Part shown: piece by piece, positions 2,155-3,877 of the stretch | Position numbering within the stretch: position 1 is the first letter of the stretch | How the letters are laid out: the number at the start of each line of letters is the position of its first letter | Virus record (IMG/VR): IMGVR_UViG_3300010201_000017 | Reading direction: 5' to 3' (one strand) | DNA length: 64,000 nucleotides | From: a virus | Lineage: Duplodnaviria; Heunggongvirae; Uroviricota; Caudoviricetes | Position numbers and translations under genes: made by a program | Notes under the pieces: model-generated | Told to the model about the DNA's origin: nothing | Seen by the model: the letters and a program-made list of their open reading frames with translations, nothing else | The model's database searches: none

Positions 2155-2358
2155 TCAATTTACGTGCTCGGCCTCTCTACCAACAATCGAAGCCGGCGCT
2201 GCAAGTGTCTTTGCGATGGTCGGAAGGCGCGCTTCGGCAAGCAGCTGCTCCATGAACGACGTCTCTTCCTCTGACAGACGAAGATAGACGAAGGGTGCTG
2301 CACTGGGCAGCAACTCACGCTTGGCTTCTTGGATTCGTTTGGCGATTTCGTCGATCAT
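2155..2358 (-). CDS. small hypothetical protein (67 aa), last gene of the ADP-ribosylglycohydrolase operon
   Basis: Same strand as genes 2371..3877 and separated from them by a 12-nt gap. Helical, charged sequence. Confidence 0.35.
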   Translation of the reverse strand: MIDEIAKRIQEAKRELLPSAAPFVYLRLSEEETSFMEQLLAEARLPTIAKTLAAPASIVGREAEHVN

Positions 2359-2370
2359 GAATGTGCCTCC

Positions 2371-2685
2371 CTAGGCTGTCGGTAAAGCTGGGCGATTACG
2401 CCAATCCTGCCATGTACTGGTCGGTTGTTCCTCTGGGTGATCCTTTACCCATTTAAGAAAGCGATCCTCTCGTCTCGAGAATTCATCGGCTCTCTTGTTC
2501 ATTCTCCATATGAAGAGCTTTTCAACGCCTGGAATCTCGTCCGGATCCTCACCAGCTTCAATGCGCGATTGTATGTCCCGCAGCTCCTTTGGCATGAAGA
2601 AGATGTAGGGGCGTTCAAGACTACGCCACCAGCTCAAGGCTCGCGCTATCAACGTTTCCTCTTTCATCTCGACACACCTTCTCAA
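2371..2685 (-). CDS. hypothetical protein (about 100 aa)
   Basis: Minus-strand ORF whose start overlaps the stop of the upstream ORF (2682/2685), which suggests translational coupling. Confidence 0.4.
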   Translation of the reverse strand: MRRCVEMKEETLIARALSWWRSLERPYIFFMPKELRDIQSRIEAGEDPDEIPGVEKLFIWRMNKRADEFSRREDRFLKWVKDHPEEQPTSTWQDWRNRPALPTA

Positions 2686-2903
2686 ATCGAATCGTAATCT
2701 GTGAGATCGAATTCGTGACCAGTCTTTTCGTGCTTAATTTTGACTGCGGTATTGACCCCCGTAGGCACCATCCTGATCGTGTAGGGGCCATGCTCATGAA
2801 TTGTCAGCCAGACACCAAACTTCCTCGCGACATCGTCAGATGAGTTCACTGAGACGTAGTTGTCGATTTTGACCGTTGCCATTCCACCCTCCAAAGCACG
2901 CAC
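2682..2903 (-). CDS. small hypothetical protein (about 65-73 aa)
   Basis: ORF overlapping the ADP-ribosylglycohydrolase stop at 2903. The start is probably the MATVKIDN… methionine. Confidence 0.4.
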   Translation of the reverse strand: MRALEGGMATVKIDNYVSVNSSDDVARKFGVWLTIHEHGPYTIRMVPTGVNTAVKIKHEKTGHEFDLTDYDSI

Positions 2904-3877
2904 TATTTCTTGTCAAACCACCCACGAAGAATACGAAGTCCGAGCTGAACGAATACACTGCGCTCTTCGCTCTCAACATTTTCAATCGGATCGGCCTCGT
3001 AGACGATTACTGGACGCTGCGCTTCTTGAGCCGCGTTCCAATTTTCGACGACTAACGGATCCCACACAGAAATATTTGCAAAGTCGCTGAGGGAAATTGG
3101 CGTTCTTCGGATGAGTGCAGCTGCGTCAACCACCGCAGACAAGCGCTCTTGAAGATCGACAGGCAACGAACCGACCGCAGCCGCTTTCAAATTATCTGGC
3201 ACCCCGAACATTGACTCTGCAATTGATCCGGCGATCGCCGCCTCTGTATCGGCATCACCACCAAGCGAAATCGCGTTTCGAATCGCATCCTTGAAACTCG
3301 TCGCTTCAAGAGCGCAGACAATGGCCCGGGGTACCGAAATCCACGATTTCAGCTCAAAACTTGAGACTGTTCTAAGGTCGTCAACCGACGATGAGAGGTC
3401 ATACCCGAACTTACTCTGAACGAGCTCCCGTATCTCGGACTGGGACCAACCTGTGATGGCAGCGTAGACAGCACAGGCGACTGCCTGCGCCCCTCTGACG
3501 CCCTCCGGATGATTGTGAGAGACCTCGGCGCTCAGAGCCGCCTTTCGAAGGCAGTCCTCAACGCTAACCGCGAACCAGGCTGCTGGAGATACCCTCATGG
3601 CGGCACCGTTTGCCCACGATCCGTAGGGGCCATCGCCATACCAGCCGTTCGCCCACCCCCAGAAGTGAGGCCCATACGACGTTACGTGGTCCACTGTGTA
3701 ACGTCGGAGCGTGGAGACCATGTCCAAGTTGGAAGCCAGCGCATCGGCAACAGCTATCGTGAGAACCGAGTCATCAGTCCAAATGCAGCCTTCGTGAACG
3801 AGTTCGAAGTCTTTGCTCTTCGTTGGCGAGAACTCAAACCGCGATCCGACAAAATCGCCTACGATGGCCCCATACAT
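2903..3877 (-). CDS. ADP-ribosylglycohydrolase family protein (DraG/ARH-like)
   Basis: Family motifs read directly from the translation: GAIVGDFVGSRFE…WTDDSVLTIAVADAL…NGAAMRVSPAAW…SHNHPEGVRGAQAVA…GGDADTEAAIAGSIAE. This is a catalytic core of about 260 aa plus a C-terminal extension of about 60 aa. Confidence 0.8.
   Translation of the reverse strand: MYGAIVGDFVGSRFEFSPTKSKDFELVHEGCIWTDDSVLTIAVADALASNLDMVSTLRRYTVDHVTSYGPHFWGWANGWYGDGPYGSWANGAAMRVSPAAWFAVSVEDCLRKAALSAEVSHNHPEGVRGAQAVACAVYAAITGWSQSEIRELVQSKFGYDLSSSVDDLRTVSSFELKSWISVPRAIVCALEATSFKDAIRNAISLGGDADTEAAIAGSIAESMFGVPDNLKAAAVGSLPVDLQERLSAVVDAAALIRRTPISLSDFANISVWDPLVVENWNAAQEAQRPVIVYEADPIENVESEERSVFVQLGLRILRGWFDKK

Follow-up and report, generated by a model that had tools for sequence, protein, structure and literature searches.

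An ADP-ribosylglycohydrolase gene and its small co-directional neighbors on a replicon of at least ~0.87 Mb

We analyzed a 64,000-nucleotide (nt) stretch of DNA, IMG/VR record IMGVR_UViG_3300010201_000017 (the whole stretch is called the window), whose minus strand carries a gene for an ADP-ribosylglycohydrolase (ARH) at the head of a compact string of small genes running in the same direction. A preliminary description of this DNA had reported an ARH gene with a C-terminal extension, followed by three small open reading frames (ORFs). That much was confirmed, as all four minus-strand ORFs are present where they were described, and the ARH both matches its family profile and is longer than its relatives. 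With moderate confidence, we read the locus as an orphan ADP-ribose eraser carried as accessory cargo, together with unrelated small genes, on a replicon of at least 0.87 Mb. The genes of the string, with lengths in amino acids (aa) and including calls from the Joint Genome Institute (JGI), are as follows:

2903..3877, minus strand: ARH, ADP-ribosylglycohydrolase, 324 aa, ATG start, matching PF03747 and phrog_6572
2682..2882, minus strand: s66, 66 aa (maximal ORF 73 aa, from 2903), conserved ATG with GGAGG ahead of it
2371..2667, minus strand: s98, predicted helical protein, 98 aa (maximal ORF 104 aa, from 2685), conserved ATG
2155..2358, minus strand: s67, 67 aa, GGGAGG 7 nt upstream of its ATG
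1728..2078, minus strand: fifth co-directional ORF (s116), 112–116 aa (from the ORF list; 112 aa in the JGI call)

Gene starts and coding status

The Pfam scan placed PF03747 on ARH residues 1–220 (E 4.9e-29, 102.3 bits against a cut-off of 26.2), and in the PHROGs scan the protein matched phrog_6572, annotated 'ADP-ribosylglycohydrolase', at E 7.8e-45. The catalytic domain spans approximately residues 1–245, after which comes a C-terminal tail that extends ~55 aa beyond the usual family length. In an alignment of homologs, complete proteins were mostly 254–285 aa, while the window ARH and its sister on contig L093 are both 324 aa. This sister contig (Logan SRR5221245, 2085 bp) is the reference for all start, substitution-rate, and synteny comparisons given here. 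The first part of the tail contains an IPVWDP motif that is also found in the 55%-identical homolog of the Bosea plasmid pBSY19_1, and the extension is real.

Across 95 aligned homologs, residues D8, E15, T34-D35-D36, S87, N90, H123, D208, D210, and T211 show no variation or almost none, and every one of these metal-site and catalytic residues is kept in the window protein. They include the binuclear metal-site signature, with G-D..G..E near the N-terminus, T-D-D, and D-x-D-T near the C-terminus. A PDB sequence search lined them up with the ARH3 motifs GDCVGS..E and GGDTDT. The protein groups with a short subfamily of the PF03747/DraG-like superfamily and is probably a catalytically competent, metal-dependent ADP-ribosyl-acceptor hydrolase; its activity, its substrate, and the transferase it would oppose are all predictions from sequence. 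The ATG of its gene has a GGAG 7 nt upstream. Two more specific assignments were rejected in the NCBIfam scan, namely DraG equivalog (TIGR02662, 51.5 bits against a cut-off of 337) and Tri1 equivalog (NF041672, 37 bits against 490). With scores so far under the cut-offs, the ARH does not fall in with the DraG/TRI1-type enzymes of a conserved metabolic context that the preliminary description had raised as the alternative. No draT or nif gene was present among the window proteins scanned.

The junctions between the four genes had been described as 1–4 nt overlaps indicating translational coupling. Taken as maximal ORFs, the genes run 3877–2903 (324 aa, ATG), 2903–2682 (73 aa, GTG), 2685–2371 (104 aa, TTG), and 2358–2155 (67 aa, ATG), all on the minus strand. 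However, s66 has an internal ATG at 2882 with the ribosome-binding site GGAGGgtggaATG (GGAGG) ahead of it, and s98 has an internal ATG at 2667, again with a ribosome-binding site ahead. The JGI gene caller chose the same internal starts on the source contig, yielding proteins of 66, 98, and 67 aa separated by gaps of 20, 14, and 12 nt. The overlapping GTG is not conserved in L093, where the stretch from the ARH stop to the s66 ATG has a 1-nt indel, and the overlapping TTG is unusable there because a TGA lies in frame 9 nt upstream of the s98 start. Because both internal ATGs are kept in L093 with their Shine-Dalgarno sequences, while the GTG and TTG starts are disrupted, the overlaps are artifacts of longest-ORF calling. 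The genes are closely spaced in one direction, which is nothing unusual in a bacterial operon, and they do not overlap. No intrinsic terminators were found by a simple scan of the spacers between the four genes, and a scan for promoters and terminators returned nothing over shuffle expectation.

We compared the window with L093 using the Nei-Gojobori method to obtain ratios of nonsynonymous to synonymous substitution rates (dN/dS). The ratio was 0.095 for the ARH (dS 0.58), 0.017 for s66 (dS 0.38), and 0.21 for s67 (dS 1.3); for s98, synonymous sites were saturated and the corresponding ratio of uncorrected proportions, pN/pS, was ~0.25. All four genes are real, protein-coding, and under purifying selection, and it is this selection against L093 (dN/dS 0.02–0.2) that marks the small genes as genuine. 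The most constrained of them is s66, whose last ~40 C-terminal residues are nearly invariant and which is unusually conserved for a small accessory gene. Silent-site divergence differs considerably along the string. Since the distal genes s98 and s67 have accumulated far more silent-site divergence than the ARH and s66, a mosaic history is suggested, rather than descent as one co-inherited module.

Distribution of the hydrolase and the small genes

A four-gene synteny in other genomes, as the preliminary description envisaged, was not observed. The gene order recurs solely in L093, a close relative, with identities of 90% for the ARH, 98% for s66, 73% for s98, and 70% for s67, and at such relatedness the shared order is uninformative. 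We then considered ARH homologs at 38–50% identity to the window protein, at 80 loci from bacterial and archaeal genomes and 11 loci from IMG/VR viral contigs, along with the megaplasmid loci of Bosea (ARH 55%) and Rhizobium (ARH 44%). At all of these loci (80 + 11 + 2), s66, s98, and s67 were absent, as was the distal part of the ARH tail, and the proposal of a toxin-antitoxin or dedicated cassette is not sustained by this distribution. An all-against-all comparison of the neighbors of the small-gene families also found no conserved partner. Because s66 and s98 occur without an ARH, and ~90 ARH loci lack the small genes, we consider these to be evolutionarily independent accessory genes rather than obligate partners, a toxin, or an antitoxin of the ARH, a view that forms part of our preferred reading and shares its moderate confidence.

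The relatives of the small genes are few. Homologs of s66 at 63–76% identity were found on three contigs, none of which has an ARH: in L094 the neighbors are PDDEXK and SbcCD-like genes, in L095 resolvase, holin, and endolysin genes lie nearby, and L096 is a short contig. A metagenome scan with s66 recovered nothing beyond the known L094 contig, and its only hit in the family scans was a sub-threshold SH3-like match (E 0.026). For s98, a profile search of 1.84 billion representatives returned 8 matches, all but one of which are proteins of 58–98 aa. The loci of this family are likewise without an ARH, and one of them adjoins a Phage_Mu_F gene (L100). The AlphaFold2 model of s98 is all helical (pLDDT 77) and had no meaningful fold match to the PDB in Foldseek; s98 is the founding member of a small uncharacterized family of short proteins, which only the exhaustive profile search brought to light.

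The homolog of s67 is in L093 only, at 61–70% identity. Its single-sequence AlphaFold2 model (pLDDT 72) has a helix-extended-helix-helix layout without a PDB match by fold (Foldseek) or by sequence, and a strand-helix-helix-like pattern (PFVYLRLSEEE...) resembles ribbon-helix-helix proteins by eye only. IMG/VR scans with alignments of s66, s98, and s67 found no relatives. These three proteins and the 1728–2078 ORF had nothing significant in Pfam, PHROGs, NCBIfam, or PADLOC, and in PADLOC-DB 2.0 there was no match at E <= 0.01 for the ARH, s66, s98, s67, s116, the release-factor-like protein, or the ADP-ribosyltransferase (ART) described below. At 66–98 aa, s66, s98, and s67 are each too small for an ART domain. 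The fifth ORF begins 77–89 nt downstream of s67, and the next gene beyond it is on the other strand. It has no homologs or family matches, and L093 stops short of its position; it may be the last gene of the ARH transcription unit.

The ARH subfamily itself is patchily spread through phages, plasmids, megaplasmids, and bacterial chromosomes. In the viral contigs, its surroundings are consistent. An ART lies within ~4 kb of the ARH homolog in 9 of the 11 IMG/VR contigs, and all but one of these nine ARTs (L087 is the exception) are fused to or adjoin a MuF head-protein domain. In L086, an ADPrib_exo_Tox protein is encoded immediately upstream of the ARH, with a Phage_Mu_F gene just downstream, and related transferases are encoded in L092 and L087. 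Six others (L082, L083, and L088–L091) encode an 822-aa MuF-like protein with an ART domain at its C-terminus. Together, the nine ART-linked loci represent approximately four or five independent lineages. In viral contigs, the short ARH subfamily is consistently tied to ARTs, mostly MuF-fused or MuF-adjacent and so probably packaged in the virion. This agrees with the published view that macromolecular ADP-ribose adducts are what phage ARH ('ARG') domains act on, and that these domains can pair with ARTs of the phage, many of them packaged into the head by way of MuF (PMC9503650). The theme of reversible ADP-ribosylation in the preliminary description therefore gains support from the viral ART linkage, while the coupled-cassette form in which it was proposed does not.

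In bacterial genomes, the immediate neighbors of the ARH homologs were heterogeneous, with 129 Pfam families among 134 neighbor proteins. The sole recurrent one was the Macro domain, found as an immediate neighbor in 5 cases and within three genes at 9 loci. It was also observed that five proteins of 450–629 aa from Lachnospiraceae and Oscillospiraceae (L004, L008, L011, L012, and L075) are ARH-Macro fusions.

A candidate transferase, the upstream region, and the replicon

The partner transferase had been left open in the preliminary description, which credited the ORF starting at 34298 with only a weak HGT motif. In our scan, this ORF matched ART-PolyVal significantly (PF18760, 41.3 bits with a cut-off of 31.2, E 3.4e-10):

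34298..34981, plus strand: stand-alone ART-PolyVal ADP-ribosyltransferase, 227 aa, PF18760

A further match (E 1.4e-11) is to the ART segment of the polyvalent-protein profile phrog_21376, which has 1664 residues, and the transferase is 47% identical to an ORF of the Rhizobium leguminosarum plasmid pRlX5, with H31-G-T and Y143..E148 conserved. That plasmid has an ARH homolog too, 326 kb from its ART. Searches with viral-ART profiles found nothing in the window or in its flanks (L001 and L103). The ORF is the only transferase that we could detect in the window, and it stands as the candidate writer for the ARH.

On its other side, the ARH is separated from a divergent gene by the following region:

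3878..4119, no strand: intergenic region that separates the ARH from the divergent release-factor-like gene

Approximately 95 nt next to the ARH are kept in L093, including a 27-nt identical run, and because of this conservation the region is probably a promoter or operator. It has no Rfam match, its folding z-score is only -2.0, and a consensus scan found no sigma-70 promoter in it. The gene beyond (4120–4836, plus strand) is release-factor-1-like and lacks release factor domain 1, keeping a PxT-type tripeptide (PRT) and the GGQ motif. It contains an in-frame TGA at 4237–4239, with the frame unchanged beyond it, at what is by eye the position of a Trp in E. coli RF1. This TGA could mark a pseudogene, programmed readthrough, or an autoregulatory site. 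Global recoding of TGA was rejected, as TGA terminates 22 of the 54 long ORFs. In two unrelated metagenome-assembled bacterial genomes, a gene with an ArfB-like RF-1 domain lies directly upstream of the ARH homolog on the same strand (L009 5495–5974 and L016 434–940), which possibly reflects a link between ARH and ribosome rescue, or chance.

The ARH lies on JGI contig Incfw_1000046 (233,669 bp), which ends at approximately window position 47,486, and the protein at 61,786–63,111 is encoded close to the beginning of another contig of that metagenome (3300000497), Incfw_1000011 (633,648 bp). The junction between the contigs (~47486–47547) falls inside an IS605-type TnpB gene (47284–48507, minus strand). 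Window proteins appear again on a further JGI contig, of 201 kb. The replicon is at least ~0.87 Mb, with 867 kb in the two joined contigs, and most of its ORFs are without any known family. Mobile-element genes in the window encode PcfJ, DUF2786/DUF7168, AbiEii, TnpB, and an SNF2 helicase. Type IVb pilin domains are found in flank L103, and the flanks L001 and L103 encode the housekeeping-type proteins CysRS, ThyA, and DHFR. Megablast of window positions 1–8000 against plasmids and phages gave no match. Among ten large family-less ORFs there were no matches to virion-protein PHROGs; only the ART-PolyVal ORF matched, to the polyvalent profile. Since no virion proteins were matched and the 867 kb exceeds the largest phage record matched here (735 kb), we favor a megaplasmid-like element as the most economical reading, with a giant phage or phage-plasmid as a possible alternative. 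As for kinship to Bosea pBSY19_1 or Rhizobium pRlX5, the sole matches besides the ARH and ART were weak ones, to 2–3 window proteins.

Several further genes were observed in the window. Full-length genes of housekeeping type lie interspersed with the family-less ORFs; they encode an RpoD-like sigma factor that has both region 1.1 and the non-essential region (13026–14909, plus strand), CTP synthase (38153–39805, minus strand), and RarA/MgsA (20603–21901, minus strand). A TilS-like PP-loop gene, also of housekeeping type (27000–27707, plus strand), lies immediately upstream of a CAT-anticodon tRNA (27790–27865, plus strand), which may be a lysidine-modified tRNA-Ile and not a tRNA-Met. A tRNA-Ile with an unusual AAT anticodon is found at 51241–51316 (plus strand). 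Two sets of tandem paralogs are on the plus strand, at 25023–25985 and 25995–26981 (34% identity over 331 aa) and at 6879–7415 and 7492–7704 (55% identity over 60 aa). A toxin gene of the AbiEii nucleotidyltransferase family (54062–55186) is preceded by an ORF of 214 aa, and the two (53478–55186, plus strand) are likely an AbiE-type toxin-antitoxin or abortive-infection pair. Finally, a 216-aa protein (50435–51085, minus strand) has a homolog in phage-like L095 (4158–4694), where it adjoins holin and endolysin genes (45% identity in tblastn; 55% over 119 aa in blastp). Because homologs of this protein and of s66 are both present there, the element has at least two genes in common with L095.

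Competing explanations and comparison with known systems

According to the preferred reading, the ARH would take ADP-ribose off macromolecular targets. The marks could be those written by the element's own ART-PolyVal, with the ARH limiting self-damage or resetting the host after entry, or they could be written by hostile transferases such as toxins and defense systems, with the ARH serving as orphan immunity or counter-defense. There is precedent for the latter in the NADAR protein AdfN, which counters DarTG1 (PMC11825919). The genes s66, s98, and s67 would probably be co-transcribed with the ARH from the upstream promoter region, as cargo with separate roles.

Several observations weigh against this reading. 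The candidate writer is 30 kb from the ARH, unlike the adjacent ARTs of the viral contigs, and its viral relative L106 (a weak match) has no ARH nearby. Only one of six plasmids with ART-PolyVal homologs is known to carry an ARH as well, and in bacterial genomes the ARH subfamily has no recurrent ART neighbor. Given the Macro partners, a role on small ADP-ribose derivatives is possible. The lineage-specific ARH tail and the extreme conservation of s66 leave room for a physical partnership, which counts of co-occurrence could miss in a lineage sampled so thinly.

Such a partnership would be central to a dedicated four-gene module, in which the small proteins are regulatory or targeting subunits, for example by docking on the tail, with an anti-defense or counter-toxin function. 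Close spacing in one direction, the order kept in L093, the lineage-specific tail, the very strong constraint on s66, and the AdfN precedent all speak for it. We nevertheless regard it as unlikely, since kinship with L093 would by itself predict the conservation there, no other context found for the s66 and s98 families includes an ARH, some 90 ARH loci do without the three genes, the partner genes have no conserved neighbors of their own, and the unequal divergence from L093 suggests mosaic assembly. A more specific form, in which the tail and s66, perhaps with s98 or s67, make a multi-subunit eraser whose small subunits direct the hydrolase to its target, appears distinctly improbable. If true, it would be a new kind of counter-defense module against ADP-ribosylating immunity, with nucleic acid or, given the divergent release-factor-like neighbor, the translation apparatus as example targets. 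The compact operon layout could also accommodate a toxin-antitoxin system, with the ARH as a DarG- or Tri1-like antitoxin to a small-ORF toxin, or with s67 as a ribbon-helix-helix antitoxin or repressor. The strand-helix-helix-like pattern of s67 and its modeled helix, extended segment, and two helices are in keeping with this, and ART-ARH toxin-antitoxin pairs exist in some phages (PMC9503650). However, the operon encodes no ART or other toxin domain, its small proteins (66–98 aa, two of them helical) have no family matches, the s67 model matches nothing in the PDB, and no conserved two-gene pair was found anywhere, which together make this explanation very improbable.

Two further explanations look beyond the small genes. 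The ARH and the divergent release-factor-like gene could together repair or rescue translation machinery that ADP-ribosylation has damaged. Both genes and the region between them are kept in L093, an ArfB-like RF-1 gene lies immediately upstream in 2 of the ~90 ARH loci (L009 and L016), and one group of viral contigs encodes RtcB at a distance of three genes from the ARH; PrfH and RtcB2 are a known ribosome-repair pair. Yet two independent extra cases among 129 neighbor families carry a high multiple-testing risk, the gene may be a pseudogene given its in-frame TGA, its score is 33.6 bits against the PrfH cut-off of 166.65, and the window proteins scanned include no RtcB. We see only a slim chance that the two genes are partners. 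A housekeeping or metabolic ARH, acting on O-acetyl-ADP-ribose or other soluble derivatives, or in DraG-like regulation, without a role in conflict, is unlikely as well. In its favor, the subfamily is widespread in bacterial chromosomes with mixed neighbors, it recurs fused or adjacent to Macro domains, and O-acetyl-ADP-ribose is hydrolyzed by ARH3 (cited in PMC9503650). It is weakened by the patchy spread of the subfamily into phages, plasmids, and megaplasmids, by the adjacent ARTs in viral contigs, by the failure of the ARH to qualify as a DraG equivalog or to show nif/draT context, and by its location in a region full of family-less genes on a replicon with mobile-element features.

We compared the locus with known systems that include ADP-ribose erasers. 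The phage ART-ARH pairs and MuF-ART effectors (PMC9503650) involve the same ARH family, and the viral homologs of the window ARH are ART-linked in the same way. An ART is likewise present in the element here, its type being characteristic of polyvalent proteins that are injected. However, this ART is 30 kb from the ARH and is an ART-PolyVal rather than an Alt, VIP2, or exoenzyme type, and where the phage loci have MuF genes, no MuF or virion gene was seen here and the neighbors are small family-less genes. In the window and the flanks L001 and L103, searches with the viral ART profiles turned up no MuF-fused or MuF-adjacent ART close to the ARH (a few kb or less). The locus also differs from an ART-ARH toxin-antitoxin pair in having neither an adjacent transferase nor a pair conserved across genomes. 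Tri1, the immunity protein against the type VI secretion system (T6SS) toxin Tre1 (NF041672; PDB 6DRE), belongs to the same DraG-like fold family and has the metal-site residues in common with the ARH, and reversal of toxic ADP-ribosylation is the presumed role of both. Unlike Tri1, the window ARH is without an N-terminal occluding extension, as its domain starts at residue 1, and neither its operon nor its flanks have an adjacent Tre1-like ART or T6SS gene. The same superfamily includes DraG (TIGR02662), which belongs to the DraT/DraG switch of nitrogenase, with a match to PDB 2WOC at E 8.5e-8 over residues 86–253, whereas the window offers no draT, nif, or PII context.

Stand-alone erasers offer further parallels. 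AdfN is likewise found on a mobile element without an adjacent transferase (PMC11825919); its NADAR fold is unrelated to that of the ARH. The ARG-centric host conflict systems (PMC9503650, section 3.8) are also ARH-centered without a cognate transferase in cis. Regulators of the Nudix or WYL-HTH kind belong to them, as do chaperones and rhodanese-type phosphatases (PMC9503650); with Pfam and NCBIfam we detected none of these in the operon or the flanking genes scanned.

If the preferred reading is true, the locus would represent one more mobile element with an ADP-ribose eraser and would add little beyond comparative surveys. The three small proteins define or extend tiny uncharacterized families. 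The link between ARH and ART in viral members of the short subfamily would be a concrete pairing of writer and eraser, and the element itself, holding both an ARH and an ART-PolyVal, offers a further candidate for such a pair.

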